64,000 bases of DNA from IMG/VR virus record IMGVR_UViG_3300042486_001111; one strand, written 5' to 3'. This DNA is from a virus. Its lineage: Duplodnaviria; Heunggongvirae; Uroviricota; Caudoviricetes. This document shows, piece by piece, positions 1,044 to 14,546 of this stretch (position 1 is its first letter; each line of letters opens with the position of its first letter). The notes beneath the pieces were generated by a model. The model searched no databases and was not told the origin of the DNA. It saw only the letters and a program-made list of their open reading frames with translations. The position numbers and the translations under genes are program-made.

Positions 1044-1654
1044 TATATTTTTTCTTCTTTAAACATTTTTTTTATTTCATCAGATAGTTTGTCATAATCC
1101 ATATCAAATTTATCTGACATAGAGTTAAGTATTCTTTTATTACCGTATGGTGAATTTCCAGGAACTGACCAATTCCTACTAGTCTTTAAATGGTTATAAA
1201 ATAATACATATGCATTTGCCTTTTTAGTATATGTGGGTACATCAATGGGTAGATTCCATTTTTTAATCATCTCCACACTCCTCTTCTCATTATCCAATTC
1301 CAAATCTCTGGCAATATCAATGTGTGATCTAATACCCACAATTTTTTTATCTTTGTTACCTAACCATTCCCACATTTTTTCTAAGGAAACACTTGCCCTA
1401 TCCCACAACTCTATTTTATCTAACCACTGTGTCATATGACAGAACTCGTGAACTAAAAGTTCTAAATAATCTTCCCTACCTTTGGCATACGCCAGTGTTG
1501 GCGGTTTGGTATTATCATCAAAAAAACCTGCACATTTAATATTGTCAGTTAACTTGATATATCTCCTTTTGTATTCTTTTACTTTCACACCATGTTTCTT
1601 ACATTCACTCTCTACATACTTAATGAAATTTTCCACATTAGTGTTTTTACTCAT
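1043..1654 (-). CDS. Hypothetical protein with HExxH (HEFCH) zinc-metalloprotease-like motif
   Basis: True start probably MSKNTN at 1654, overlapping the stop of the upstream small ORF; LLVHEFCH motif. Confidence 0.6.
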   Translation of the reverse strand: MSKNTNVENFIKYVESECKKHGVKVKEYKRRYIKLTDNIKCAGFFDDNTKPPTLAYAKGREDYLELLVHEFCHMTQWLDKIELWDRASVSLEKMWEWLGNKDKKIVGIRSHIDIARDLELDNEKRSVEMIKKWNLPIDVPTYTKKANAYVLFYNHLKTSRNWSVPGNSPYGNKRILNSMSDKFDMDYDKLSDEIKKMFKEEKI

Positions 1655-1805
1655 CTTTGTCTTTGTTTTTATGTTTACTCTTTCTATTATATAAATTTTT
1701 AGGGGTTTCTGATCTAGCCACAAAACGACCATCAAAGAAACCATCCTCTATTTGTTGGTGTCTTTCTTGAGTTCTTTTCATTTTATGTTGATCATACTTT
1801 TTCAT
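1647..1805 (-). CDS. 52-aa basic peptide, ArfA-like ribosome-rescue factor candidate
   Basis: Manual translation MKKYDQHKMKRTQERHQQIEDGFFDGRFVARSETPKNLYNRKSKHKNKDKDE; F-x-x-R...Y-x-RK-x-KH motif; below the ORF-track length cutoff. Confidence 0.5.
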   Translation of the reverse strand: MKKYDQHKMKRTQERHQQIEDGFFDGRFVARSETPKNLYNRKSKHKNKDKDE

Positions 1806-1809
1806 AACC

Positions 1810-2436
1810 TTAAAATTCTTTGTCTAACTTTTCAATCTTTTCAACTTCTGGTTTATCCATCACACATTTAATTTTTGTGGATGAGTCATCTTTTCTATGT
1901 GAAAAATGAATATGAGAATCAACAGTCATATCTGATCTATGCGGATTTCTTTTCCACCTTTCATTTCGTATTACTTGTACAATATCAAATGACATTCTAC
2001 AACTATCATCCACATTTTCATTATAGATACCCCAAGAACCATTTCTAGTCATTAATGGATCATTAATCAACATGTTACGAGGTTGCACTAACATCTCATC
2101 AACATTATCTCTAATATTATGATACCTACCATAATCAGTACTCAATTTCACATCTTTTAGTTTCTTCCATTCCTTTTCCTTACACCAATGTCCAGTTTCT
2201 TTACTAACAGAACCATTTATTAACGCCTTACCATCTTTAATCTCTAATATTTCACCTTGTGGAGTTCTATCCCCAACCTCTGGTTGTCTTTTAGGTCTAC
2301 AAACTTCCTCTAAATATACTTCAAAGGTTGGGTGATCTTTGATAACCTCAAATTGCCCAATACCTACTCTAGAGTAAAAGTCTAATGCCTTTTCTACTAA
2401 CCAAAGTTGTTCGTCAGTTAATTCTAAATTATTCAT
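1810..2436 (-). CDS. Hypothetical phage protein
   Basis: 208-aa ORF in a tightly packed co-directional array. Confidence 0.75.
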   Translation of the reverse strand: MNNLELTDEQLWLVEKALDFYSRVGIGQFEVIKDHPTFEVYLEEVCRPKRQPEVGDRTPQGEILEIKDGKALINGSVSKETGHWCKEKEWKKLKDVKLSTDYGRYHNIRDNVDEMLVQPRNMLINDPLMTRNGSWGIYNENVDDSCRMSFDIVQVIRNERWKRNPHRSDMTVDSHIHFSHRKDDSSTKIKCVMDKPEVEKIEKLDKEF

Positions 2437-2815
2437 TTGTTTTGTCTTTTAAATATTGTTTTACATATTCATACGTTGATTCAAATGAGAAACAAATAGG
2501 GTTACCATTTTCATCGTGTGCACCATAAGATTTCACAGGATCACTTTCGATTACTTTACCAGACACACTATCTATTGTTGGGTATTTAGACCAATCTTTT
2601 TGTCCCCAATCATTTTCAAAAATAAACCAATTTATCCAATCAATCCCTTCTTCAGTATAATGTGATTCTAAACAGGACTCAAACATAATATATACGTTAT
2701 CCGACATACGGTACTTACCCTCTAAAAGATCGAAACCAATATCATATAATTCACTAATGTCCTCACTAATTTTTTTATATGACATTAATATTTTTAAAAA
2801 TTCTTCGTAAGTCAT
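2429..2815 (-). CDS. Hypothetical phage protein
   Basis: 128-aa ORF overlapping its neighbours. Confidence 0.75.
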   Translation of the reverse strand: MTYEEFLKILMSYKKISEDISELYDIGFDLLEGKYRMSDNVYIMFESCLESHYTEEGIDWINWFIFENDWGQKDWSKYPTIDSVSGKVIESDPVKSYGAHDENGNPICFSFESTYEYVKQYLKDKTNE

Positions 2816-3084
2816 AATCTTTTAGTATTTAAAATTATTTTATCGTCTATTTTTTCAATAGACTCTACAATTAAACCTTTTAAGTCATCATGTATATAAC
2901 CCATATCCATACCTAGTCCAATATATGGTCCACCCATAGGATCAACTGCAGTATATTTTGGATTACCATTTTCATCTAAATTAAATAGAGATCTGTAAAA
3001 ATCCCCACCTTTCATTTCAAATGATTCACCTTCACCAATGAAACTAATAGTTTCATCATGTCTATTTTTAAAATTATATTCCAT
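2812..3084 (-). CDS. Hypothetical phage protein
   Basis: 90-aa ORF with 4-bp overlap to the next gene. Confidence 0.7.
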   Translation of the reverse strand: MEYNFKNRHDETISFIGEGESFEMKGGDFYRSLFNLDENGNPKYTAVDPMGGPYIGLGMDMGYIHDDLKGLIVESIEKIDDKIILNTKRL

Positions 3085-3463
3085 CTTTCTTATTTTTTAT
3101 TTTCATATATTCCCCATCACAAAGAGTTCTATACCAACCTATGTCAGTTCTTAAAGTTCCTGGTTCGCCAGTTACTTCACAAATTTCATAACTCTTATTT
3201 TCTGCCTCTGTTATTCTTTTGAATATTTCATCACTACCACCATTAATATAGAACCTTAGTCCTCCGAACTTTTCTTTAACTTGAGTTACTTGTTTATCCC
3301 AACCCAATTTAATTAAATCTTCTATAAGTTCTTTGATGAGTTTTAACCACCCATTGTCCACTTCAAAATAACCACAATCTTTAATTGGTGGTTTTTCAGT
3401 TCTCCAACCGTTTTCTAATCCACCTATAGAAATTAGAAAATCATTCATTTCTTCTTCTGTCAT
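3074..3463 (-). CDS. Conserved phage hypothetical protein (QVKEKFGGLRFY family)
   Basis: QVKEKFGGLRFY plus C-terminal ICEVTG/TLC motif common in large phages. Confidence 0.75.
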   Translation of the reverse strand: MTEEEMNDFLISIGGLENGWRTEKPPIKDCGYFEVDNGWLKLIKELIEDLIKLGWDKQVTQVKEKFGGLRFYINGGSDEIFKRITEAENKSYEICEVTGEPGTLRTDIGWYRTLCDGEYMKIKNKKDGI

Positions 3464-3473
3464 ATATTTTATT

Positions 3474-3734
3474 TTAAACTATAAGTCTATCGATATCAAT
3501 ACCTCTTTCAGATAATTGTTCATTCAATTTTTCAAAAACTGAATCTATTCCATCATATACTGTAAGTTCCTCACCTTTTTCTTCTCTCCCTTCGAATTCA
3601 TAATATAATCTTTTTTTAATATTATAAACCATTTCAAATAGGACCAAAGACATATCAGTAGACTTAGTACATCTTTCGAATTCCATTTTATCGTCAAAAT
3701 CTGTTAAATCAAATTCCAATTTTGCTTTACTCAT
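3474..3734 (-). CDS. Hypothetical phage protein
   Basis: 86-aa ORF in the operon. Confidence 0.7.
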   Translation of the reverse strand: MSKAKLEFDLTDFDDKMEFERCTKSTDMSLVLFEMVYNIKKRLYYEFEGREEKGEELTVYDGIDSVFEKLNEQLSERGIDIDRLIV

Positions 3735-3747
3735 AATAATTTAATTT

Positions 3748-4098
3748 TTATTTCCAAAATAATTGTATCATTAATATTAAAAATGATAAAAATAAACAGA
3801 CATATGTTTTTGTTGTCAAAGGCTCATCAAATACTTTCCAACTTAATAATGTAAATACCATTGCCCCAATACTGAACCCTATCAATCTGGACGGCCACAT
3901 TTCACCATTAAATGCGGTTATCATATTTTTTACTGAATACATAAATAACATTGAAATTGGGATACCTGCCAATACTGTTAACCAGTAATTATCTCTAATC
4001 CAATTATATTTAAGTTGTCCTTGTAGTTGGAAGAAAGTTAATATTTGCGCAAAAAACCCAACCAACATACCAACTAAAAGATTATTTTTATTTATCAT
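3748..4098 (-). CDS. Small multi-pass membrane protein (SMR/DMT-like size, about 4 TM)
   Basis: 116 aa with four hydrophobic segments. Confidence 0.6.
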   Translation of the reverse strand: MINKNNLLVGMLVGFFAQILTFFQLQGQLKYNWIRDNYWLTVLAGIPISMLFMYSVKNMITAFNGEMWPSRLIGFSIGAMVFTLLSWKVFDEPLTTKTYVCLFLSFLILMIQLFWK

Positions 4099-4462: not shown

Positions 4463-5035
4463 TTATTTTAAAAATTTAAGTATTTTATCTTTAATCCCTG
4501 ATTGTTTAATACCTTCATGTCCTCTTGGCGTTAAAACAAAATTATCCAATCCCCAATCTTTCCAATCTTCACCATTCTTACCCATATCTAGATCATCAAC
4601 CGCAACCCAATGTGTAATCTCAGGATGATCGTGTAGATATTGTTTTATCTCAATAACTCTAGTCATTTCTAAATCCCATCTCGGTGACCATATCCAAACC
4701 ATATCATTGTACCAATTACACTGTCCTAAGTTTGGTGTTAAATCTATTGGCTTTTTAATAATACCCTGAGATTCGTAATACTCACCCATCTCTTCTAAGT
4801 TTGCCCATCGTTTCCAATCGGATGAGGTGACAATCTCAGTACCAGTTTCTTCTATAATTTTATTAAGAATCTTAATTGCTTTTTGATTGAAGTTATCAAA
4901 TCGGTACTCCAAAGGGAAATCCCCCATAGACATAGATAACTTACGACCATCCCATTTTTCTTGTTTCTTACGTCTCCCACCCCATTCTGAAGATAAACAA
5001 ATTACCCCATCATGATCTAAAAATATAACTTTCAT
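4463..5035 (-). CDS. HAD-superfamily phosphatase (Swiss-Army-knife RNA-repair HAD type)
   Basis: N-terminal KVIFLDHDGVI (DxD), IVTSSDWK, VAVDDLD. Confidence 0.8.
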   Translation of the reverse strand: MKVIFLDHDGVICLSSEWGGRRKKQEKWDGRKLSMSMGDFPLEYRFDNFNQKAIKILNKIIEETGTEIVTSSDWKRWANLEEMGEYYESQGIIKKPIDLTPNLGQCNWYNDMVWIWSPRWDLEMTRVIEIKQYLHDHPEITHWVAVDDLDMGKNGEDWKDWGLDNFVLTPRGHEGIKQSGIKDKILKFLK

Positions 5036-5340
5036 ATATAAATTTTATTATCTAAACAATATTTTACAATATAGTTTTTTAAATTGATTATTGTTTCTTT
5101 AAAATCCACTCTTTTGAATTCATTCTCCCATCTTTCACCTTCATTATCCTCTTGTAATAAATCGGAACAACTTTTACTAATCTCAGAAATAAGTTGTTTA
5201 AGTGCTACAGTCTGATCAACTACTTGATTATTCTCAATAACCAAATCTTCCAATTCTCTACAATACTCAACTAACTCCATAACTTCAGGTTCATCCATTA
5301 GTGTGGTGTTATTTTTGAATATTTGGTTGATTGACTTCAT
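5032..5340 (-). CDS. Hypothetical phage protein
   Basis: 102-aa ORF with 4-bp overlaps. Confidence 0.7.
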   Translation of the reverse strand: MKSINQIFKNNTTLMDEPEVMELVEYCRELEDLVIENNQVVDQTVALKQLISEISKSCSDLLQEDNEGERWENEFKRVDFKETIINLKNYIVKYCLDNKIYI

Positions 5341-6029
5341 ACGAATTCCATTTCATTTGTTTCAGTATCCCAAATCACATTAACAGGTTTGTTTCGATAT
5401 TCGTATCTATCATTTAACACTGACGCATTAATATAATGCGTATTACCATCAAACACATACCCATAACCCTCATGTATGTGCCCAAATACGTGAATTTTTG
5501 GTTTTATTTCTTCAACACGTTTCATAAGTTCTTCACACCCAACGTTCTCATTTCCATAACGGACATAATCTAACTTCCCAAAAGGTGGACCGTGAGTGAT
5601 AAGAATATCCGTATCCACAGGAATCATATCCCATTTCTCTTTTAACTTTTCACCTCTAGGTAAATTAAATGCCCAATTAAAAAACTCTGGTTGCCAAGGT
5701 GTACCATAAATTACTAACTGTTGATCTTCATCGTCCCAAAGATCCATTCTTTCGTCCTGAAGATATTCAACGTTCTTATATCCTGTTAATAAACCTATTA
5801 GTTTTTCATAATCGTTCTCAAACCCAAAATCGTGATTCCCCGCAATAAAAACTTTAAAGTCGTAATTGTCTATACTATCAAACCACTTTAAAAAGTTTTC
5901 AATCTCAGTAATATACCCTCGACTAGATATGTCACCCGCACAAATAAGAATATCTCCACCAGTTAAAAAACTGTTTAGTTTTTCGTGTTTGGTGTGTGTA
6001 TCACTTATAAATGTTATTTTCTTTTTCAT
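5337..6029 (-). CDS. Calcineurin-like metallophosphoesterase (MPPED/239FB type)
   Basis: ISDTH, AGD, IAGNHD, LITHGPP and FGHIHE motifs. Confidence 0.9.
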   Translation of the reverse strand: MKKKITFISDTHTKHEKLNSFLTGGDILICAGDISSRGYITEIENFLKWFDSIDNYDFKVFIAGNHDFGFENDYEKLIGLLTGYKNVEYLQDERMDLWDDEDQQLVIYGTPWQPEFFNWAFNLPRGEKLKEKWDMIPVDTDILITHGPPFGKLDYVRYGNENVGCEELMKRVEEIKPKIHVFGHIHEGYGYVFDGNTHYINASVLNDRYEYRNKPVNVIWDTETNEMEFV

Positions 6030-6031
6030 AA

Positions 6032-6196
6032 TTAATCAAAAAAACCACCAAAATATAATAATGTTAGATGTATTGTTACACCTATCATAGTAACAAAGAC
6101 ACTGTGATTCCCTTCTTTTGGTTTACCGTGTAAATAAGAAGAAATCATTAAGTTAAGTCCAATAAGACTTAGTAAGATAATTTGTGGAACCCCCAT
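6032..6196 (-). CDS. Small 2-TM membrane protein
   Basis: Start likely MGVPQ at 6196 because the promoter at 6215-6246 overlaps the longer predicted start; two hydrophobic helices. Confidence 0.6.
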   Translation of the reverse strand: MGVPQIILLSLIGLNLMISSYLHGKPKEGNHSVFVTMIGVTIHLTLLYFGGFFD

Positions 6197-6214
6197 AATA
6201 TATAATTTAGTAAA

Positions 6215-6246
6215 CAAATATAGTTATTATTTCCCATAAAAACAAA
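6215..6246 (-). promoter_or_regulatory. Bacteroidota-type promoter (TTTG-N20-TATATTTG)
   Basis: Consensus match; drives the gene array downstream of tRNA operon 1. Confidence 0.75.
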
Positions 6247-6265
6247 TGTTTTAACATTTTTATAG

Positions 6266-6340
6266 TACCAAAGGTGAGATTCGAACTCACAAACCTTTGT
6301 TTCTAAGACAAAGAGGTATACCTATTCCCGTCACTTTGGT
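6266..6340 (-). tRNA. tRNA-Leu(UAG), short variable loop
   Basis: Acceptor ACCAAAG/CTTTGGT, anticodon arm TTTGT-CTTAGAA-ACAAA, T-arm GTGAG-TTCGAAT-CTCAC. Confidence 0.85.
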
Positions 6341-6346
6341 ATTTTG

Positions 6347-6419
6347 AGCAGGTGGAGAGAATCGAACTCTCGTCCTCTGATTGGAAGTCAGACATAATAA
6401 GCCACTATACGACACCTGC
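6347..6419 (-). tRNA. tRNA-Gly(UCC)
   Basis: GCAGGTG/CACCTGC, TCTGA-CTTCCAA-TCAGA, U73. Confidence 0.95.
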
Positions 6420-6428
6420 ATAATTAGT

Positions 6429-6554
6429 TTACCTAATTTTTAATTTTTTAAAGATATTGATTATCTTTTTGAGATTGAGATTACTTCTCCTACTCAAAAG
6501 AAAGTTCACATTTTCTTTTGATGATTTAAACGTTCCTTTTACTACTACTTTCAT
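6429..6554 (-). CDS. Small basic ORF (41 aa) inside tRNA operon 1
   Basis: Manual translation MKVVVKGTFKSSKENVNFLLSRRSNLNLKKIINIFKKLKIR. Confidence 0.4.
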   Translation of the reverse strand: MKVVVKGTFKSSKENVNFLLSRRSNLNLKKIINIFKKLKIR

Positions 6555-6569
6555 ATTATTTATTTTTTG

Positions 6570-6643
6570 TGGATACATCTCGGCTTCGAACCGAGGACTC
6601 CTGAGTGCAAATCAGGTATGATAGCCAGCTTCATCAATGACCC
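6570..6643 (-). tRNA. tRNA-Ala(UGC), one-nt bulge in the acceptor stem
   Basis: CCTGA-TTTGCAC-TCAGG; G3:U70 retained; 3' strand ATGTATCC has one extra T. Confidence 0.8.
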
Positions 6644-6648
6644 ATTAG

Positions 6649-6723
6649 TTGCGGGGGAGGGACTCGAACCCACGTAGTTCGGCTTATGAGACCGAGCTGG
6701 AACCACCTCCAGTCTACCCCGCA
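6649..6723 (-). tRNA. tRNA-Met(CAU), initiator-like acceptor
   Basis: TGCGGGG/CCCCGCA, TCGGT-CTCATAA-GCCGA. Confidence 0.85.
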
Positions 6724-6755
6724 ATTTTTAATTACACCGAATTCGGTATATTTAG

Positions 6756-6830
6756 TTCTCCCGACAGGATTCGAACCTGTGACTCCCTCATTAAAAGTGA
6801 GGTGCTCTAAACCAACTGAGCTACGAGAGA
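6756..6830 (-). tRNA. tRNA-Lys(UUU)
   Basis: TCTCTCG/CGGGAGA, CCTCA-CTTTTAA-TGAGG. Confidence 0.95.
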
Positions 6831-6836
6831 TTGTTG

Positions 6837-6908
6837 AGGTTCCGCTCAGATTCGAACTGAGGACACATGATTACAAATCAAGCGTTTTACCAACTAAACT
6901 ACAGAACC
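6837..6908 (-). tRNA. tRNA-Thr(UGU)
   Basis: GGTTCTG/CGGAACC, CTTGA-TTTGTAA-TCATG (one mismatch). Confidence 0.9.
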
Positions 6909-6955
6909 TTATTATCACCCGTATGGTAACCGCTTGATTAACGGGCGAAAAATAG

Positions 6956-7028
6956 TAGTCTCTGTAGGGTTCGAACCTACGACATCTTGCATGTAAAACA
7001 AGCACTCTACCAACTGAGTTAAGAGACT
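6956..7028 (-). tRNA. tRNA-Val(UAC)
   Basis: AGTCTCT/AGAGACT, CTTGT-TTTACAT-GCAAG. Confidence 0.95.
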
Positions 7029-7032
7029 GTTG

Positions 7033-7116
7033 CGGAAGAGTGAGGTATCGATCCCCATACCCGAAGGTACCACTAGTTTTCAAGACTAGGTCCAGCGCCA
7101 GCTGAATTACTCTTCC
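7033..7116 (-). tRNA. tRNA-Ser(UGA)
   Basis: GGAAGAG/CTCTTCC, CTAGT-CTTGAAA-ACTAG, long variable arm, G73. Confidence 0.9.
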
Positions 7117-7132
7117 AGTTTTTTTCAATACG

Positions 7133-7141
7133 TCAAAGAAC
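7133..7141 (-). promoter_or_regulatory. boxA-like antitermination element GTTCTTTGA
   Basis: Same 9-mer also at 8891, 13619 and 21370, each 5' of RNA genes. Confidence 0.6.
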
Positions 7142-7142
7142 T

Positions 7143-7176
7143 AAAAACAAAAAACCCTAAGTTTTCACTTAGGGTT
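7143..7176 (-). terminator. Attenuator intrinsic terminator of tRNA operon 1
   Basis: AACCCTAAG-TGAAAA-CTTAGGGTT followed by TTTTGTTTTT, located upstream of the first tRNA. Confidence 0.85.
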
Positions 7177-7203
7177 CCCATTTATAGTATTAAAATTTTA
7201 CGA

Positions 7204-7302
7204 TTAACTAATGTGACATACCCTAAGTATTGGATGAAGCGAATCCGCCCCTTCCATTTTCGTCTTAACGACCTCTAGTCTGTATGTGAATGTAGTTAAC
7301 AT
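7204..7302 (-). CDS. Leader peptide 1 (32 aa, MLTTFTYRLEVVKTKMEGADSLHPILRVCHIS)
   Basis: Manual translation; lies between promoter and terminator; contains the antiterminator strand CTTAGGGT (7220-7227). Confidence 0.8.
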   Translation of the reverse strand: MLTTFTYRLEVVKTKMEGADSLHPILRVCHIS

Positions 7303-7334
7303 TGAATTTTTATTTGTTTTTAATTAAATATACA

Positions 7335-7366
7335 CAAATATACAAAAGTTTAAACAAAAAGTCAAA
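7335..7366 (-). promoter_or_regulatory. Bacteroidota-type promoter of tRNA operon 1 (TTTG-N20-TATATTTG)
   Basis: Consensus match; 39-nt block 7315-7353 is identical to 9158-9196. Confidence 0.85.
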
Positions 7367-7385
7367 TATTTTTAAAAAAATATTT

Positions 7386-7760
7386 TTATTTCATATTATC
7401 CATAGTAAGTTTATCTGCAATATAAACGTGTTTTAATTCCATTTTGAATTTATTTTCGAACCACTCCTTAAAAAAATAAAGGAATGATTTGTTAGATTCA
7501 AATTCTGGTGATTCTTTAATAAAGTTTTTATAAACTTCATATCTTATTTCAAGAAAACCCCCAAACGCAAAATATGTCATAATAACATTAGGTAGTGTTA
7601 ATTCAATTGAATTAGGTTTTGTCCAAATTCTTTTTCTAATCGATTTACCGTTAAAAACATGTATCACATTTTTTTCCTTTTTAAACCTAACTTCTTTAAA
7701 TAAAGAATTAAATGTATCCTCACCAATTTTTTTTTCTGTAATTACCATATCTTTTCCCAT
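7386..7760 (-). CDS. Hypothetical protein between the two tRNA operons
   Basis: 124-aa ORF with its own promoter at 7780-7810. Confidence 0.7.
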   Translation of the reverse strand: MGKDMVITEKKIGEDTFNSLFKEVRFKKEKNVIHVFNGKSIRKRIWTKPNSIELTLPNVIMTYFAFGGFLEIRYEVYKNFIKESPEFESNKSFLYFFKEWFENKFKMELKHVYIADKLTMDNMK

Positions 7761-7779
7761 AGTTTTTGATTTATTTAGA

Positions 7780-7810
7780 CAAAGATATGAATAATTTTCA
7801 TTCTACCAAA
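7780..7810 (-). promoter_or_regulatory. Bacteroidota-type promoter (TTTG-N19-TATCTTTG)
   Basis: Consensus match, near-duplicate of 315-345. Confidence 0.8.
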
Positions 7811-7833
7811 TTTTTTAACGTTATTTTTATTTG

Positions 7834-7907
7834 AGGTCAGAGTGAGATTCGAACTCACGAAAAGTAGTTTTGCAGACTACCCCTTTAAACCACTCAGGCA
7901 TCTGACC
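7834..7907 (-). tRNA. tRNA-Cys(GCA)
   Basis: GGTCAGA/TCTGACC, GTAGT-CTGCAAA-ACTAC, U73. Confidence 0.95.
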
Positions 7908-7976
7908 GTTAGTTCACTAAACTATATTTTGCTTAATAAATTACATTTGTTTATTGTTGCAAAAATAAGTTTATCG

Positions 7977-8049
7977 TACACTCTGAGAGATTCGAACTCC
8001 CATCTTATGATCCGTAGTCATAGGTTCTGATCCATTGAACTAAGAGTGT
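7977..8049 (-). tRNA. tRNA-Arg(ACG)
   Basis: ACACTCT/AGAGTGT, TATGA-CTACGGA-TCATA. Confidence 0.95.
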
Positions 8050-8051
8050 AT

Positions 8052-8126
8052 TGGTAGGGATGGGTGGAGTCGAACCACCGAGACTACTGTATAAGAGTAG
8101 CATGTTCACCGTTACATCACATCCCC
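8052..8126 (-). tRNA. tRNA-Ile(UAU), encoded CCA
   Basis: GGGGATG/CATCCCT-A-CCA, CTACT-CTTATAC-AGTAG. Confidence 0.9.
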
Positions 8127-8134
8127 ATATTTTG

Positions 8135-8221
8135 CGGAAAGAATAGGATTCGAACCTACGGTACCCTTTCAAGTACAACACCTTAGCAGGGTGCCACAAT
8201 AAACCGCTCTGTCATCTTTCC
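8135..8221 (-). tRNA. tRNA-Ser(GCU)
   Basis: GGAAAGA/TCTTTCC, GCACC-CTGCTAA-GGTGT, long variable arm. Confidence 0.95.
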
Positions 8222-8225
8222 ATTA

Positions 8226-8299
8226 GGTGTACGATGGGACTCGAACCCACTATTGACGGAATCACAACCCGACGCCTCGACCACTTTGGCTTCATACAC
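8226..8299 (-). tRNA. tRNA-His(GUG)
   Basis: GTGTATG/CGTACAC, C73, anticodon loop TTGTGAT; no genomic G-1. Confidence 0.85.
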
Positions 8300-8301
8300 A
8301 G

Positions 8302-8372
8302 TTGTCTCCCAAGGATTCGAACCTCGATTAAGTGGACCAAAACCACTTGTCCTGCCATTAGACGAGGAGACA
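8302..8372 (-). tRNA. tRNA-Gln(UUG)
   Basis: TGTCTCC/GGAGACA, AGTGG-TTTTGGT-CCACT. Confidence 0.9.
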
Positions 8373-8379
8373 TTATTTG

Positions 8380-8468
8380 TCTAAGTGATGGGACTCGAAC
8401 CCACATAGAACTGTTACATTCATTCCTGATCCCAAATCAGGTCGGCGACCAATTGCCTACACACCTAG
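8380..8468 (-). tRNA. tRNA-Pro(UGG) with about 20-nt variable region
   Basis: CTAGGTG/CACTTAG, CCTGA-TTTGGGA-TCAGG, insert AATGAATGTAACAGTTCTAT before the T-arm. Confidence 0.85.
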
Positions 8469-8474
8469 TTATTG

Positions 8475-8547
8475 TGGAACAGGTAGGAATCGAACCTACA
8501 TTGTCGGATTTTCAGTCCGATGCCTTGACCAACTTGGCAACTATTCC
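8475..8547 (-). tRNA. tRNA-Phe(GAA)
   Basis: GGAATAG/CTGTTCC, TCGGA-CTGAAAA-TCCGA. Confidence 0.95.
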
Positions 8548-8552
8548 ATTTG

Positions 8553-8623
8553 CACACCCCCAAAGATTCGAACTCTGACCAAACGGGTTGGAGCCGTTTA
8601 TGCTACCGTTACACTAGAGATGT
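8553..8623 (-). tRNA. tRNA-Trp(CCA)
   Basis: ACATCTC/GGGGTGT, AACGG-CTCCAAC-CCGTT, G73. Confidence 0.9.
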
Positions 8624-8628
8624 GTATA

Positions 8629-8701
8629 AATGTTCAGGAAGACTTTTTTTACATTTCCAAATTAGTAGTTTTTTATTTGCTGAAATCTTCCTTTTAACAT
8701 T
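8629..8701 (-). ncRNA. Small structured element with CAGCAA motif between tRNA-Tyr and tRNA-Trp
   Basis: AATGTT...AACATT and GGAAGATTT...AAAGTCTTCC stems enclosing CAGCAA; resembles the RNAs next to the TROVE gene. Confidence 0.45.
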
Positions 8702-8703
8702 TG

Positions 8704-8786
8704 TGAGGGTAGTAGGATTCGAACCTACTCAGTCATAGACAACAGATTTACAGTCTGCCCCAACTCTCCAACTTTGGCGTACCCCC
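8704..8786 (-). tRNA. tRNA-Tyr(GUA)
   Basis: GGGGGTA/TACCCTC, GCAGA-CTGTAAA-TCTGT, long variable arm. Confidence 0.95.
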
Positions 8787-8798
8787 ATTAATTATTTG

Positions 8799-8872
8799 CG
8801 ATTCAGGCAGGACTCGAACCTGCGACAACTTGATTAACAGTCAAGGGCTCTAACCAACTGAGCTACTGAATC
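8799..8872 (-). tRNA. tRNA-Asn(GUU)
   Basis: GATTCAG/CTGAATC, CTTGA-CTGTTAA-TCAAG, G73. Confidence 0.95.
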
Positions 8873-8909
8873 ATTTAATTTTACATTATATCAAAGAACT
8901 TATGTTCTG

Positions 8910-8985
8910 TCGGTATGGTAGGGATCGAACCTACGAATCTTCTCGATATCAGCGAGATGCCTTAAACCTACTTGGCCACATACCG
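8910..8985 (-). tRNA. tRNA-Ile(GAU)
   Basis: CGGTATG/CATACCG, TCTCG-CTGATAT-CGAGA. Confidence 0.9.
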
Positions 8986-8994
8986 TAATAAATT

Positions 8995-9025
8995 AAAAAA
9001 CCCCAACTCATTTCTGAATTGGGGT
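8995..9025 (-). terminator. Attenuator intrinsic terminator of tRNA operon 2
   Basis: ACCCCAATTCA-GAAA-TGAGTTGGGGT plus T-tract, immediately upstream of the first tRNA. Confidence 0.85.
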
Positions 9026-9051
9026 ACTTTAATCCTTTATTTATTTATCTA

Positions 9052-9150
9052 TCAAAATTTAAATAACGACATAACATACCCCATCCTTCCGTAAATATAA
9101 AACGGTTGACACCACTGTATCGGATTACTATGTATGTTATTCATTATCAT
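9052..9150 (-). CDS. Leader peptide 2 (32 aa, MIMNNIHSNPIQWCQPFYIYGRMGYVMSLFKF)
   Basis: Manual translation; lies between promoter and terminator; contains the antiterminator strand TGGGGTA (9077-9083). Confidence 0.85.
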   Translation of the reverse strand: MIMNNIHSNPIQWCQPFYIYGRMGYVMSLFKF

Positions 9151-9177
9151 TTTTTACTGTTTTTAATTAAATATACA

Positions 9178-9209
9178 CAAATATACAAAAGTTTAATTAA
9201 AAAGTCAAA
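9178..9209 (-). promoter_or_regulatory. Bacteroidota-type promoter of tRNA operon 2 (TTTG-N20-TATATTTG)
   Basis: Consensus match; duplicate of the operon 1 promoter block. Confidence 0.85.
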
Positions 9210-9239
9210 TATATTTTTAAAATTATTTTTTTTAAAATA

Positions 9240-9262
9240 AAAAACCCCTAAAAATAGGGGCT
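9240..9262 (-). terminator. Intrinsic terminator after the lipoprotein gene
   Basis: GCCCCTA-TTTT-TAGGGGT plus T-run on the minus strand. Confidence 0.7.
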
Positions 9263-9286
9263 TAACAAAAATTTATTTTTTGTTTT

Positions 9287-9469
9287 TTACTTCACCTCCA
9301 CCGATGTGCTATCTACATTTTCGGTTCCTGCGGTATCATCAGAAGCAGTACCTGCATCTGTTGCCACACCATTTGTAGTTGCATCATTAGTTGTTGAATC
9401 TGATTGTGTGTTTCCACCACAAGACACTAAAAGTGTCATAACTGTCAATACCAAAAAAACTTTTTTCAT
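9287..9469 (-). CDS. Small lipoprotein (signal peptidase II type, low-complexity T/D/S tail)
   Basis: MKK plus hydrophobic stretch plus LLVS-C lipobox. Confidence 0.75.
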   Translation of the reverse strand: MKKVFLVLTVMTLLVSCGGNTQSDSTTNDATTNGVATDAGTASDDTAGTENVDSTSVEVK

Positions 9470-9598
9470 TTTTAAAAAAATTATTTAATTATTAGTTAGG
9501 CTTTTCACCCATCGGAGATTATAAGTGTCTCTAACTATACAAAACAAAATTATAAAAAAAATATGTGAAAGTAAAACTTTTTAACATTTGATAACAAT

Positions 9599-9904
9599 TT
9601 ATTTATTGTCACCATATTTTTCCTTCAAATACTTTACCCACTCTTCTTGCTTCCTACCATTAATAAAAAACCAACCCAAATTAATCTCAAACCATTTATT
9701 AAAACTGTATAATATATTTCTTATAATGAAAAAAATTGTAATAAAAAAAACTATTATTATCGGTGCAAAAGGTACCCAACCCATAAAATTTTGAAATTTA
9801 GATATGTCTTTTCTAACCACACCAGCACACATTAAAAAATATTGAACGAATAGTGTGAACGTAATCACAAAAAATACTGTAAATTTACCTATAATCTCAA
9901 ACAT
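9599..9904 (-). CDS. Membrane protein
   Basis: Two hydrophobic segments. Confidence 0.65.
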   Translation of the reverse strand: MFEIIGKFTVFFVITFTLFVQYFLMCAGVVRKDISKFQNFMGWVPFAPIIIVFFITIFFIIRNILYSFNKWFEINLGWFFINGRKQEEWVKYLKEKYGDNK

Positions 9905-9907
9905 AAC

Positions 9908-10312
9908 TTAATCTTTTATTATTCTTTTATGTGTCTTAGTGGATACCTCTTTAATTTTTTTCTGCGATGATGGTGATTCGCCTAAACCATTTGCCATCCA
10001 AGATTTAATCTCCATTTCCTGTAAAAAATCAGATACATTAGGTATAAACTTTTTACCATAATCCTCTAATATATGGTATTCACATATATCTTTAACTGAT
10101 ACAGTTTTACCATCAGAGTTTGTTATATATTCCCCAAATATAGGTATCATTACTTCAAATATGAAAAACATATTATGGGTTAACGCCCTATGTCTATTAT
10201 CACTAAAGTATTTTTTAGAGACATCCATTTTATTATGAAGTGGTAAGTAATCTTCTACATTACCACCCCACAGTTTTATGGAAGATTTGGAATGTACTAA
10301 AGGATTAGCCAT
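9908..10312 (-). CDS. DUF6915-like protein
   Basis: MANPLVHSKSS..WGG..EDY..H..MD..K....D.RHRAL.H pattern. Confidence 0.7.
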   Translation of the reverse strand: MANPLVHSKSSIKLWGGNVEDYLPLHNKMDVSKKYFSDNRHRALTHNMFFIFEVMIPIFGEYITNSDGKTVSVKDICEYHILEDYGKKFIPNVSDFLQEMEIKSWMANGLGESPSSQKKIKEVSTKTHKRIIKD

Positions 10313-10727
10313 TAGTTTCTTCTATATTAGAATCATTAGTTTCATCATCTAAACCATCACCAACCGTTACATCCCAAATTTTAGATTCCTCTACATCCTC
10401 TTCATAGATTTCACCCCAATACTCCTCACTAACAATTGTACTAACAGTAATCTCTTGTTCAGAATTCATATTATATTCTATTTTACCCGATGTACCAGCA
10501 TTATTCCAATTATACTCTACACCTGATTCATCTAATATCTGAAATAGAAAACTCCAATGATCATCTAAATTTAAAACACCTTCTCTTTGCGGGTATATCC
10601 CTACATATGAAAATGAACCGAAGGAATCTCCTCCTCCCTCAAATTCAATTTCAACTGTGTCATTTTGTGGATCAAAATCAGGGTACCCACTTTTAATCAT
10701 CTCAATAAAACTTTTTTTAATTCCCAT
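10305..10727 (-). CDS. Acidic protein, DUF6878-like
   Basis: IEFEGGGDSFG motif; commonly paired with the DUF6915-type gene. Confidence 0.5.
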   Translation of the reverse strand: MGIKKSFIEMIKSGYPDFDPQNDTVEIEFEGGGDSFGSFSYVGIYPQREGVLNLDDHWSFLFQILDESGVEYNWNNAGTSGKIEYNMNSEQEITVSTIVSEEYWGEIYEEDVEESKIWDVTVGDGLDDETNDSNIEETNG

Positions 10728-10953
10728 TTTTTTATTTTCTAAATTTTTCGGAAAACTCAGTATCCTCTAATTCTGGTGGGCAAACATCAATAATGTGTTT
10801 TCTCCACCAACTCTTTAATTTTATTTTAATTATTTTTAACATAAATCTCTACAGTATAAGTTTGCCAAAATTAATCTAGCAAATTTTAATTCTTTAGACC
10901 TATTTAAACGCAAACCATATGCGCGAGCAATAACATTTAAATGAGGGTATGCC

Positions 10954-11136
10954 TCACTTATCGTCATTTGTCCTATCGTTTTTTGATTCATAATCATTTT
11001 TATTTACACATACATAAACTTCTTGAAACCACCCAAAAACACATTCACCTGAAAATTTAACTGGTATAAATTCATCCCAATTGAAATTCGGTATTACGTC
11101 ATAATATGTTTCATTTGGAAAAATTACTCTAACCAT
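10954..11136 (-). CDS. Small hypothetical protein
   Basis: 60-aa ORF in the array. Confidence 0.55.
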   Translation of the reverse strand: MVRVIFPNETYYDVIPNFNWDEFIPVKFSGECVFGWFQEVYVCVNKNDYESKNDRTNDDK

Positions 11137-11445
11137 TTAGTTGGGGTATTTATTAACATAGTCTAATGCAGATAATGATAAATATTTAATTAACCTTTCG
11201 TTATCTAATTTTTTAACTTTTCCTAAATCTGACATCATCTCTAAATAAGACTCAACAATCTTATCAAACTTTCTTTTGTAATAATCTTCAGGTGGCATAT
11301 AATTATTTTTTTTACAAATATAGTAAATATTTTTTAATTAGTCACAAAATATGCAATAATTCCGATAAAAATAAACCAACCTATTACGATAATAGTCCAT
11401 TTGTAATCTTCTTTAATATTTCTCATATTATTATTTTTAAAAATT

Positions 11446-12081
11446 TTAGTCCCACCAACCCTTAAGTCCTGAACCATCAAACCATTTATAATATTGATCA
11501 GTTTCTTTTTTCTCTTCCTCAGTTAAAGTCTTCTTAAACTTTTTATAATCTTTATAATCCTGACCTTTTAAAATTTTGAATAGTTCTTTCCATTCTTTTT
11601 CCTCAATTTTACGGGACAGTTCAAAAACTTTACTATTATGATTCTCTTCTTCTTCAGTATTCTTTTCTACTAATCTAGAATATCCTGGTTTATCAGGTAC
11701 TTCCTCAAACTCCCAATCATGAAGGTGTAACGGTCCTAACTCAGATTCAGCCATTTCAATGTAGTTACTCTCATTATAATTTTTAATGATTTCTACTGCA
11801 CGTTTCATTGCGGCAACTTTTTTCAATCTTGATATGTCAATCTCCAACCCTTTTTTTTCTAAGTTTTCTGACATATGAGTTAAACCAACCTCCAGAAACA
11901 TTAAAGTTCCGTGATGATCCCACCAATAGTGGTTTGCCAATGGTTTCCTAAATCTCCATACGTTTTTTATGAAACGCATTATATCATACCTAAAAAAAGA
12001 ATAAAATTTATAAATCTTACTCTGATGCCACGATAATTTTTTTAAACTTTCCGCAAAAGTGTCCGCAAATTTTATTTCCAT
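11446..12081 (-). CDS. Hypothetical phage protein
   Basis: 211-aa ORF, aromatic-rich, ends GWWD. Confidence 0.75.
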   Translation of the reverse strand: MEIKFADTFAESLKKLSWHQSKIYKFYSFFRYDIMRFIKNVWRFRKPLANHYWWDHHGTLMFLEVGLTHMSENLEKKGLEIDISRLKKVAAMKRAVEIIKNYNESNYIEMAESELGPLHLHDWEFEEVPDKPGYSRLVEKNTEEEENHNSKVFELSRKIEEKEWKELFKILKGQDYKDYKKFKKTLTEEEKKETDQYYKWFDGSGLKGWWD

Positions 12082-12082
12082 A

Positions 12083-12421
12083 TTACCTAAATAGTCTTTC
12101 TAATATATTCAAATTTAATTTATCTATAAGGGATAAGTCATCACCCCAAATATTTTTTTCACACAAGTCCTCATATAATGAAAATAAGGGAGTTCTTAAA
12201 AATAAAAAATCCCACTTAGATATTCTGAACTTAGGAATGTTAGTTTTGTTGGGTAATTTAAACTCAAAAGAAAGTAATGAGTAAGCATTATGATTTTTAC
12301 TAATAGTAAAAAAATTAACACCCCAATTACTATGATAATCATTTATCTTTAATGTGATTAAATTAAAAATCAAATGAAACTTTCTAGTTTCCCAACTTAT
12401 TTTTTCTAAATGTCTTCTCAT
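12083..12421 (-). CDS. Hypothetical phage protein
   Basis: 112-aa ORF in the array. Confidence 0.6.
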   Translation of the reverse strand: MRRHLEKISWETRKFHLIFNLITLKINDYHSNWGVNFFTISKNHNAYSLLSFEFKLPNKTNIPKFRISKWDFLFLRTPLFSLYEDLCEKNIWGDDLSLIDKLNLNILERLFR

Positions 12422-12623
12422 TTTAATACTTATATGGTTTTAGAAAACTTATCACATACCCAAAAAAATAAATATATTTTTTAAAGCCATATTTTTGACT
12501 AAATGTGAATCTTTTTGTGAAGGATATTCCGTAACCGAATAACCTAAACCAAAAAATATCTTTACTTTTATGACAATAAAAAAACTTACCCATATTACAA
12601 TTATAACGTTTTTAAACTGAAAG

Positions 12624-13118
12624 TCAAATCATTAGATAAGGTTTCCATTCTTCATTGATGTTTCCGTTCATTCTTTCTATGAATTCTATATATGTTGGTG
12701 CATATGGTTTCCTAATCATTTCCATATTAGACTCTTCAGGTGTTTTATCACCTTTATTAAGATTACACTCACCACAACAAGTTACTAAATTTTTCCAACT
12801 ATTCCCACCACCTCTTGATTTTGGTAGTACGTGATCTAATGTCAGATTCTTATTTGTACCACAATAGACACACTTATGACCATCCCTCCTAAATATGTTA
12901 TACCTACTTAATGGTACTTTTTTATAAGGTAAGAAAATGTATCTCATTAATCTAATAATTGTTGGTCTCTTAAAAGTTTTTACGGTAGATACAATAGGGT
13001 TATTATCGTCAGAAAAAATAATTTCTGCCTTACCCTTGTAGACTAATTTAAACCCCCTTTTCAGTGTTGTAACATTCAATGGGGTGTAGTCATTATTTAG
13101 AACTAGTACCTTTTCCAT
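12624..13118 (-). CDS. HNH endonuclease (McrA-like)
   Basis: RRDGHKCVYCG..LTLDHVLPKSRGG.NSWKNLVTCC..CN..K. Confidence 0.9.
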   Translation of the reverse strand: MEKVLVLNNDYTPLNVTTLKRGFKLVYKGKAEIIFSDDNNPIVSTVKTFKRPTIIRLMRYIFLPYKKVPLSRYNIFRRDGHKCVYCGTNKNLTLDHVLPKSRGGGNSWKNLVTCCGECNLNKGDKTPEESNMEMIRKPYAPTYIEFIERMNGNINEEWKPYLMI

Positions 13119-13140
13119 ATCATTTATAAATATTTTATTA

Positions 13141-13170
13141 AAATAAAAACCCCCAAATAAATGGGGGTCT
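13141..13170 (-). terminator. Intrinsic terminator closing the tmRNA transcript
   Basis: ACCCCCA...TGGGGGT plus TTTTATTT. Confidence 0.8.
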
Positions 13171-13178
13171 TATAAAAT

Positions 13179-13240
13179 TGGGGCCGATAGGATCTCTATC
13201 TGGCGAATCCACCACTTTGTTTTTAAGGAACAAAGAAACC
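13179..13240 (-). ncRNA. 62-nt cloverleaf-like small RNA ending in CCA, directly 3' of tmRNA
   Basis: GGTT/GGCC closing stem, hairpins CTTTGTT/AACAAAG, GGTG/CGCC and GATAG/CTATC, then CCA. Confidence 0.5.
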
Positions 13241-13245
13241 TTTAG

Positions 13246-13613
13246 TGGAGGTGGAGGGTTTCGAACCCTCGTCCTTCCCATGTCCAAATGGATTTCTACG
13301 TGTGTAGTCAGTTTTTCTAAACTAACAAAATAGACAGTTCCCTTATTACACTGTTCGGTTTACTGACAACTAATCCTCAGTCTTCTTATTTATAAAGGTT
13401 CAAAAAGATAATAACCTGTATGTATTACTCGATTAGGCGAATACAACCTCTTCTTTTGCAATTGTACCTACAGTACCATTCAAAAGAATGTTTTCGTTTA
13501 GGGCTAAGCCCATGTTTGTATCGTTGCCGACTATTGTTTTTTTTAGATTAACGCTCTACCACGACACGCTTACGCCTACTCTTCTTACGCGAAGTCAAAT
13601 CCAATACACCCCC
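13246..13613 (-). ncRNA. ssrA: tmRNA
   Basis: 5' GGGGGTGTATTGGATTTGAC, 3' T-arm GAGGG-TTCGAAA-CCCTC and CACCTCC-A with G3:U70; resume context ATAGTC-GGC; tag ORF 13528-13433. Confidence 0.95.
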
Positions 13614-13786
13614 ATTTTTCAAAGAACTTTTCTTTAATGATTTATCGTAACCTTTGTTATAAGAAATAATATCATAACAATCAATTTCATGATCATCGTA
13701 CATCTTACTCTTCTCAAATAACTGTTTCGTTAAACTCATATATAAGTATAGTGATATTTATTTATAAAATCAAATATTTATTACAT

Positions 13787-14134
13787 ATGTCATTAAAATT
13801 ATTAGATATTTTAAACGAAGAAAAAGAAAGATGTGAATATCAAGTTAGAGATATCGGTGGTTCCGTATACTACAAAAAATGTGGTAAGGGTAAAAAATGG
13901 TTATTTACTGATGAAATAGATTTCTTAAAAAATTCAAAAAAATCTAACACTGAAGAGTGGGAAAAACCAAAAGATAAAAAATCTAAAATAAGACAACTAA
14001 ATGTTCCACAAAAAAAAGGAGACAAGTTAGAAGATTTAAAAATCTATTATACTAACTTATCTCCAGATAATTATAAAATCGAAGTGGAAGGAGATGCTAT
14101 AGTTATTAAACCATCTCCTCTAAAATACCAATAA
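13787..14134 (+). CDS. Hypothetical protein (starts MSLKLLDILNEE)
   Basis: Internal ATG at 13787 preceded by ATATTTAT. Confidence 0.65.
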   Translation: MSLKLLDILNEEKERCEYQVRDIGGSVYYKKCGKGKKWLFTDEIDFLKNSKKSNTEEWEKPKDKKSKIRQLNVPQKKGDKLEDLKIYYTNLSPDNYKIEVEGDAIVIKPSPLKYQ

Positions 14135-14546
14135 TTTCACTTAATACTAAAAGTATTGTGGCAATAATTAAATTAAACGGTATAAAACAATATCCAATAA
14201 TCCTTACACCACTTTTAATGAAAGATACTATTTGATGCCATTTTTGGTTAGGCATTTTATCGATATCAATTTTTTTAAAATCTTCTCTCACATATCTCGG
14301 TGGTACATCGATAACTAAATTAGTATCAACTTCAATTTTCTCACTCTCATTTACTACCCAACCTAATGATTCATCATCTTTTAAATCAGAGGCAATCTCA
14401 ATATTACTCAATAAAGTATTAACATTTTCATAATTACCATAAACAGACATATTTAAAACGTCATTTGGTAAACTTTCAATTAAACGTTTAACATCTTCAT
14501 TGATGAACTTTAATCTCTGTTGAAATTCTTTCTTTTTAGTACCCAT
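14106..14546 (-). CDS. Hypothetical protein with C-terminal hydrophobic hairpin
   Basis: 146-aa ORF. Confidence 0.65.
   Translation of the reverse strand: MGTKKKEFQQRLKFINEDVKRLIESLPNDVLNMSVYGNYENVNTLLSNIEIASDLKDDESLGWVVNESEKIEVDTNLVIDVPPRYVREDFKKIDIDKMPNQKWHQIVSFIKSGVRIIGYCFIPFNLIIATILLVLSEIIGILEEMV

Follow-up and report, generated by a model that had tools for sequence, protein, structure and literature searches.

Enterobacterial leader-peptide attenuators report on amino acids through the codons of a short leader, as in the thr leader (Thr and Ile codons), the ilvGMEDA leader (Ile, Leu, and Val codons), and the trpL, hisL, leuL, and pheL leaders, and Rfam includes Trp, His, Leu, Thr, and Phe leader families. 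In E. coli, the pheST attenuator (with its pheM leader) controls phenylalanyl-tRNA synthetase. The T-box (RF00230), located upstream of translation-related genes, likewise antiterminates according to the state of one particular tRNA; it binds uncharged tRNA through one specifier codon and has no open reading frame (ORF). Here, we describe two tRNA operons in a 64,000-nucleotide stretch of DNA (the window) from IMG/VR virus record IMGVR_UViG_3300042486_001111, an uncultured AT-rich phage of the Caudoviricetes, each of which is preceded by a short ORF written largely in the codons that its own tRNAs read. Both of these cassettes lie on the minus strand and follow the same order, namely a promoter (with 39 identical nucleotides), a 32-codon leader ORF, an intrinsic terminator, and a tRNA array.

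The two cassettes are paralogous, and the tRNA set of the phage locus is partitioned between them. Their arrangement of leader, terminator, and array is real, lies far beyond chance, and is conserved. With the enterobacterial leaders, the phage cassettes share (i) a short, predicted-translated leader rich in the reporting codons, (ii) a terminator before the first gene, (iii) an ORF-proximal strand that can alternatively pair with the terminator 5′ arm, and (iv) an upstream segment able to pair with that strand. They differ from these leaders in being phage-borne and paralogous and in dividing a tRNA set, in having tRNAs rather than biosynthetic enzymes as their target, and in the makeup of the sensing block, which covers 5-12 amino acid families, mostly once or twice each, whereas a run in the enterobacterial leaders involves only one to three amino acids. 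The pheST attenuator resembles the cassettes in subjecting a gene of the translation apparatus to leader-peptide attenuation, such that decoding speed feeds back on decoding capacity, but it reports one amino acid and has a protein product, whereas the phage cassettes would control the tRNAs themselves. The T-box is similar in its tRNA-responsive antitermination and its genomic setting, and differs in the features named above, the phage leaders having a conserved frame, start codon, and stop codon.

By this comparison, the cassettes appear to be classical leader-peptide attenuators in logic and geometry, with the multivalent thr and ilv leaders as their closest counterparts and pheST as the closest by target. 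Our reading, to which we assign a probability of roughly 78% from the sequence and its relatives, is that a ribosome-mediated (trp-type) transcription attenuator stands before each of the tRNA operons. A full-text search of the published literature returned no account of leader-peptide control of tRNA genes; new in these cassettes are the tRNA genes as a target, the roll call of so many families, and the paralogous pair that partitions the tRNAs.

Leader codons name the tRNAs of the downstream array

Leader ORF 2 (9052..9150, minus strand) consists of 32 sense codons followed by TGA, and leader ORF 1 (7204..7302, minus strand) of 32 sense codons followed by TAA, in agreement with the original prediction, made from the sequence alone, of two leaders of exactly 32 codons. 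The sensing block of leader 2 comprises codons 2-20 (9147..9091; IMNNIHSNPIQWCQPFYIY), and that of leader 1 comprises codons 2-22 (7299..7237; LTTFTYRLEVVKTKMEGADSL).

Array 2 (7833..8985, minus strand) contains 12 tRNA genes (Ile-GAU, Asn, Tyr, Trp, Phe, Pro, Gln, His, Ser-GCU, Ile-UAU, Arg-ACG, and Cys). These tRNAs read 18 of the 19 codons in the sensing block of leader 2, 17 of them in an unbroken run, and the leader names 10 of the 11 tRNA families of the operon. For leader 2, a 17-codon own-array run was seen in none of 200,000 samples of phage codon usage and in none of 20,000 nucleotide shuffles, and its other five reading frames yielded runs of at most 7 codons.

Array 1 begins with a tRNA-Ser(UGA)-like gene (7034..7116, minus strand) and continues (6265..7028, minus strand) with Val, a Glu remnant, Thr, Lys, Met, Ala, a small ORF, Gly, and Leu-UAG. 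While ARAGORN called 19 tRNAs in the window, the Ser-UGA-like gene was added by Rfam alone, at threshold (47.9 bits with the tRNA-Sec model versus a threshold of 47); it is a divergent allele with an odd T-arm. All eight tRNA types of operon 1 are named by leader 1, which contains Glu and Asp codons (E, E, and D) in addition.

The two leaders are complementary in what they omit. On reading of the codons, codons 2-20 of leader 2 are indeed free of T, V, K, A, G, L, E, and D, and codons 2-22 of leader 1 are free of N, I, H, P, Q, W, and C, as had been claimed; Ser is split as well, with TCG in leader 1 (the Ser-UGA operon) and AGT in leader 2 (the Ser-GCU operon). The more general claim that the leaders divide the code in the way the operons do stands for most codons, but not for E, E, and D of leader 1, which have no tRNAs in the window, nor for Arg-ACG, which has no CGN codon in leader 2.

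Leader composition follows array composition among relatives

Relatives of the window are viral contigs in IMG/VR, the longest of 326 kb. Loci (given L numbers below) were collected with the neighboring metallophosphoesterase as the query (39 IMG/VR loci), with a pattern for the promoter only (27 metagenome loci and 28 IMG/VR loci), and by a search of two whole viral records. Since the pattern covers the promoter only and specifies nothing downstream, this search is unbiased with respect to the ORF, the terminator, and the tRNAs. All sites with enough downstream sequence, except L062 and L073, share one layout, in which an ORF of 24-36 codons is followed, 23-34 nt past its stop codon, by a GC hairpin with a T-run and then by tRNAs; in the aligned op2-type leaders, length differences are whole codons, and the stop-to-terminator spacing is kept within this 23-34-nt range. 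L062 and L073, which lack both a leader and tRNAs and are apparently unrelated or chance hits, were set aside, as were the sites cut by contig ends (L071, L072, L054, and the second site of L056). The exact promoter 27-mer had no match in IMG/VR, a search of IMG/VR with an alignment of leader-1 peptides returned only loci already known, and a distant search of the locus and a near search with 20 kb of flanking DNA in GenBank phages gave tRNA-level matches or nothing, with no close phage.

The leaders and arrays form six independent classes. Two correspond to the cassettes of the window: class op1, with an array for S, D, V, E, T, K, M, A, G, and L, and class op2, with an array for I, N, Y, W, F, P, Q, H, S, R, and C. 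In class L061, a sensing block of QPKQQTQGGKP precedes Pro, Gln, Thr, Gly, and Lys tRNAs, whose ARAGORN labels looked suspect for the long-arm tRNAs and whose anticodon assignments held on inspection. Class L069/L094 (NNIHRMSISNWRRNS) has an array of Asn, His, Trp, Ser-UGA, Ile, Met, Arg-ACG, Arg-UCU, and Ser-GCU, and its leader matches even the AGA/CGU and UCG/AGU splits. Class L074 (LVLNLCLLLVVV) precedes Cys, Val, Leu-UAA, and Leu-UAG, and class L104b (FDFAFFAAEADE) precedes Phe, Glu, His, Asp, and Ala. Each of the six classes shows an own-array codon run of 8-16 (P ≤ 1.5e-4 by nucleotide shuffling). Moreover, of the 720 possible ways to assign leaders to arrays, the true one alone scores highest, whether ranked by coverage, ranked by run length, or corrected for array size. 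The rule that a leader predicts its array also worked once prospectively: an F/E/D/A-rich leader was noted on the truncated contig L067 before a longer contig, L104, showed a homolog of this leader in front of tRNAs for Phe, Glu, His, Asp, and Ala.

Within the op1 type, single codons follow single tRNAs. Where both the Glu and the Met tRNA are present (L004, L005, L008, L055, and L068), the leader contains E as well as Met at codon 16 (M16); L064, with Glu and without Met tRNA, has E and no M16; L099, with Met and without Glu tRNA, has M16 and no E; and L017, with neither tRNA, has neither codon. The attenuator reading of the original prediction is thus supported by homolog co-variation across the six classes, within the op1 type, and in the antiterminator pairing described below: in the homologs, the layout is kept, the leader codons track the arrays, and the antiterminator strand co-varies with the stem.

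The relatives also account for the surplus codons of leader 1. Those with an op1-type leader carry Ser, Asp, Val, Glu, Thr, Lys, Met, Ala, Gly, and Leu tRNAs, and against this ancestral array the match of leader 1 is strong (a run of 14, P ~2e-4). Its only exceptions (F/M5, Y7, R8, and L9) lie in or adjoin the pairing segment ACATAC; the out-of-set Tyr codon is present because this segment 1 core occupies codons 6-7. In an alignment with the near-identical L068 cassette, the tRNA-Glu gene of the window is deleted to a remnant (6909..6954, minus strand), a 41-nt internal deletion having removed the anticodon arm, and tRNA-Asp is gone along with the canonical Ser gene. In view of the Glu and Asp tRNAs of the relatives and of these deletions, E, E, and D are what remains of a match that was lost recently.

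Promoters, terminators, and a predicted RNA switch

The promoter of operon 2 (9163..9208, minus strand) has a -35 element, TTGACT (9208..9203), a 17-nt spacer, and a -10 element, TATATT (9185..9180), and includes the 39-nt block (9196..9158); that of operon 1 (7320..7365, minus strand) has its -35 element at 7365..7360, its -10 element at 7342..7337, and the block at 7353..7315. The identical promoter block that had been proposed for both operons was thus located at both, and these are its only two sites in the window; shuffles gave a match in 0 of 100 cases. The pattern TTGACT-17-TATATT matches sigma-70 at 10 of 12 positions and is equally readable as TTTG ... TAnnTTTG. Because the sigma-70 -35/-10 and the Bacteroidota -33/-7 patterns fit equally well, we make no host assignment, the earlier mention of Flavobacterium or Bacteroides being a guess.

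Intrinsic terminator 2 (8990..9027, minus strand; stem 9025..9000) and intrinsic terminator 1 (7142..7182, minus strand; stem 7179..7150) both have a GNRA-type loop, GAAA, and hairpin energies of -15.5 and -16.5 kcal/mol, each hairpin being followed by a T-run. They had been placed 26-27 nt past the stop codon, which is correct for leader 2, where the 5′ arm begins at 27 nt, but not for leader 1, where the distance is 24 nt.

Two segments of each leader could form a switch with these terminators. In leader 2, segment 1 (9132..9140, minus strand; ATAACATAC, codons 4-7) is predicted to pair with the 3′ half of segment 2 (9071..9086, minus strand; GGATGGGGTATGTTAT, codons 22-27), whose 5′ half is predicted to pair with the terminator 5′ arm and would serve as a putative antiterminator. 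In leader 1, the segment 1 core is ACATAC (7282..7287, minus strand; codons 6-7), and segment 2 (7215..7228, minus strand; ACTTAGGGTATGTC, codons 25-30) contains ACTTAGGGT, which can pair with the terminator 5′ arm, ACCCTAAGT. As first suggested, the two ORFs share a core, GGGTATGT (at 9086..9071 and at 7228..7215), that is complementary to the 5′ arm of the terminator. The duplexes of segment 2 with the terminator 5′ arm have calculated energies of -14.4 kcal/mol (leader 2) and -15.3 kcal/mol (leader 1), and the leader RNA folds are far more stable than those of shuffled sequences (z of -4.7 and -5.6).

Furthermore, the ORF of every class contains, in its 3′ part, a strand that is complementary to the terminator 5′ arm of the same class, even though the stems vary between classes. 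There are seven terminator types in which the strand follows the stem (CCCCAATTCA, ACCCTAAGT, CCCTGGGTC, CCTTGACCC, CCCTAGTC, CCCGACCTA, and CCCGAAGCGA), and only 2 of the 5040 permutations of ORFs and terminators among them are as good as the true pairing. The helix of segments 1 and 2 (ACATAC/GTATGT) is conserved and forms part of the minimum free energy fold, in which TATGT of the 3′ half of segment 2 pairs with ACATA in codons 4-7; it shows one compensatory change, with C-G in four op2 sequences and U-A in three.

We modeled a ribosome with a 30-nt footprint on transcripts ending before the terminator 3′ arm. With the modeled A site at codons up to ~18-20, the terminator 5′ arm is held by segment 2 with a probability of 0.7-0.9, and with the A site at codons 20-30 the probability of this pairing falls to 0.05-0.4. 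In the model, the codon-matched block therefore ends approximately where a stalled ribosome would start to cover segment 2, as ribosome-mediated attenuation requires.

A boxA-like motif is found in operon 2 after the first tRNA (8884..8899, minus strand; GTTCTTTGATATAATG) and in operon 1 between terminator 1 and the first tRNA (7126..7141, minus strand; GTTCTTTGACGTATTG). Compared with the rrn-type BoxA consensus for Nus-factor antitermination, GYTCTTTAANA (bioRxiv 10.1101/091223), which is gamma-proteobacterial and may not be that of the host, GTTCTTTGACG and GTTCTTTGATA each have G in place of A at position 8, and the operon-1 copy shows a second departure, at position 11. The motif GTTCTTTGAYRTATTG occurs at the same relative place in L004, L005, L008, L017, L055, L061, L064, L068, L069, L081, and L104, which represent five leader classes. 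The likeness to rrn BoxA thus lies in an 11-nt motif that stands early in both untranslated phage operons; the difference is that the phage motif is downstream of the attenuator and before tRNAs. By recruiting Nus factors (NusB/NusE), the motif may allow the polymerase to transcribe the untranslated array processively.

A model of attenuation and its alternatives

We infer leader translation, the direction of the switch, and its physiological trigger as follows. The strong shared promoter would start transcription, and a ribosome would enter the 32-codon leader. During smooth translation, the ribosome would be on or just past segment 2 (codons ~21-33) as RNA polymerase makes the terminator; segment 2 would be unable to pair, the GC hairpin and U-run would form, and transcription would end before the tRNAs. 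When an aminoacyl-tRNA is scarce, the ribosome would instead be held in the sensing block (codons ~2-20 or ~2-22), and the free segment 2 would pair with the emerging terminator 5′ arm, such that no terminator forms and the array is transcribed. The boxA-like element just downstream may then give a processive polymerase across the untranslated array. As the sensing block is written in the codons of its own array's tRNAs, the product would relieve the signal, and the outcome would be a negative-feedback, any-of-N sensor of tRNA supply, one for each tRNA block.

Several observations weigh against this model. In the window, leader 1 fits its present array weakly (a run of 6, P ~0.05), retaining E, E, and D before an operon from which tRNA-Asp is absent and in which tRNA-Glu is a mere remnant, and leader 2 lacks the CGN codon that Arg-ACG would call for. 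Among the relatives, L058, L065, and L080 keep the full op1 leader before an array reduced to Gly and Leu, the array of L059 is chimeric, and the op1 leader of L064 keeps T, K, A, and S codons without the corresponding tRNAs. On the RNA side, equilibrium folding lends no support to a trp-like blocking of the antiterminator by the helix of segments 1 and 2, since without a ribosome the truncated transcript still favors pairing of segment 2 with the terminator 5′ arm (2:3); a ribosome at the stop codon, moreover, does not cover segment 2 of leader 2, so that blocking there is a steric argument. Finally, extra tRNA does not cure amino acid starvation, and the sensed signal is ambiguous between tRNA amount and tRNA charging. 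The mismatched window, L058/L065/L080, and L059 are deletion or chimeric variants, and their leaders are otherwise identical or nearly identical to those of intact relatives.

Deletion variants that retain leaders mismatched to their arrays would also be expected if the cassettes were translation-coupled attenuators reporting only global translation capacity or infection timing (e.g., host shut-off), with incidental codon content, and the geometry of ORF, terminator, and antiterminator would work with any slow codon. We nevertheless regard this as unlikely, because the six classes have an array-specific leader composition whose true pairing is the best of 720, because the Glu and Met codons co-vary with their tRNAs, and because the rare residues W, C, and H occur exactly where their tRNAs follow.

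More improbable still is that the short ORFs encode functional micro-proteins, the hairpin merely ending a tiny gene and the tRNAs arising from read-through or other promoters. Conserved ORF length, the presence of start codons, and a further small basic ORF inside operon 1 that looks like a real gene would fit such a role, but the peptides are wholly different between classes that keep the same architecture, their only constant being a composition that mirrors the downstream tRNAs. In addition, the conserved parts are the RNA pairing segments, and the window has no further copy of the promoter pattern between terminator and array.

A leader that lists the codons of its tRNAs could in principle be read without a ribosome, by tRNAs whose anticodons bind the leader codons directly, and T-box RNAs do read a tRNA anticodon; we give this slightly less credence again. 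In a cmscan of 5500..14500 at E ≤ 1, strong matches were limited to tRNA, tRNA-Sec, and tmRNA, and the weak, sub-threshold ones were to unrelated families, none of them in the leader regions; T-box RF00230 (specifier loop and T-box sequence) had no match, nor did any other Rfam leader or riboswitch, including the Trp, His, Leu, Thr, and Phe amino acid leader families for either leader. In an Rfam scan of 15 related loci at the gathering threshold, only tRNA and tmRNA were found among the best 150 of 162 matches. Direct sensing is further opposed by the confinement of the codon match to the one reading frame that a conserved AUG/GUG opens and a stop codon ends, by the whole-codon length differences of the op2-type leaders, and by the need for as many as 17 codons in a row, for 10 different tRNAs, to act as specifiers, which would be unprecedented.

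Chance or a compositional artifact of AT-rich intergenic DNA is a negligible alternative, since, while some other frames of leader 2 reach a total coverage of 17-20 of 31 codons because Ile, Asn, Tyr, and Phe codons are AT-rich, neither the run length nor the family recall is reproduced by shuffles or other frames, and the same architecture recurs in independent classes.

Gene neighborhood of the cassettes

The window has a G+C content of 29.7% and many short, densely packed ORFs on the same strand. Its phage hallmark genes encode an endolysin/tail-peptidase protein, an SbcC-like nuclease, an HNH endonuclease, two DNA methylases, DnaJ, and a tmRNA. The tmRNA (13245..13613, minus strand; 110.9 bits in Rfam) has the predicted tag AKEEVVFA; the predicted tag of the L005 and L006 tmRNAs is long and quite unlike it.

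Between the cassettes lies a 124-aa ORF (7386..7760, minus strand) with no family match. It is present in the L008 lineage and not in L004 and L005, where promoter 1 directly follows tRNA-Cys, and a search with it returned contig ends only. Inside operon 1, between tRNA-Ala and tRNA-Gly, there is a very basic ORF of ~41 aa (6554..6429, minus strand) whose protein sequence is preserved in L004, L005, L010, and L017 although the DNA has changed at many positions, and which is therefore likely to be a genuine gene of unknown function. In L003 (IMGVR_UViG_3300027659_000009), where the flanking phosphoesterase is 94% identical, there are no tRNA arrays between the tmRNA and the phosphoesterase gene, so that the two cassettes together behave as a single insertion/deletion unit.

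Genes of RNA-repair type lie near the arrays (4463..6029 and 21382..22803, both on the minus strand) and encode an HAD_SAK_2 domain protein, a metallophosphoesterase, and a DUF2828/DUF7788 protein, the last of which corresponds to phrog_850, annotated 'RNA-binding protein'; the tmRNA can be counted with this group. When the ORFs of 375..4098 were compared with PHROGs and Pfam, an RNA ligase, a kinase, and a CCA-adding enzyme were not confirmed, and only HAD_SAK_2 and the metallophosphoesterase were.

Two of the other classes have arrays of unusual makeup. In L061 (2029..3339), the Gln, Thr, Gly, and Lys tRNAs occur as same-anticodon isoacceptor pairs, one member of normal length and the other with a long, type-II-like variable arm, and the array also holds a 70-nt tRNA with the anticodon UCA. 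In the Asn/His/Trp class (L069, L076, L094, and L103, at approximately +190 to +355 past the promoter, and L054), a short protein-coding ORF stands between the terminator and the first tRNA, and the putative attenuator of this class would accordingly control a protein gene too.

Implications for phage tRNA biology

If the cassettes monitor the decoding capacity of the host, this would bear on the purpose of phage tRNAs, for which codon usage, host tRNA decay, and defense against anticodon nucleases come into question. We tentatively consider, with more doubt than confidence, that the cassettes sense the host tRNA pool with codon resolution and serve in counter-defense: tRNAs cut or depleted by anticodon nucleases or host RNA decay would stall the ribosome in the leader and turn on only the matching replacement block, with the boxA-like processivity and the RNA-repair-type genes belonging to the same response. 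The anticodon-nuclease trigger is a conjecture, made somewhat more plausible by the RNA-repair-type genes adjoining the arrays.

If the attenuator reading is true, tRNA genes would join amino acid and synthetase genes as targets of leader-peptide attenuation, in a direct loop wherein slowly decoded codons switch on the tRNAs that decode them. It would also explain the splitting of the tRNAs of large phages into separate operons and provide a rule for predicting an array from its leader. The cassettes would constitute compact natural sensors of codon-specific translation speed, which could serve as tools, and phages would be seen to monitor the decoding capacity of their host codon by codon.

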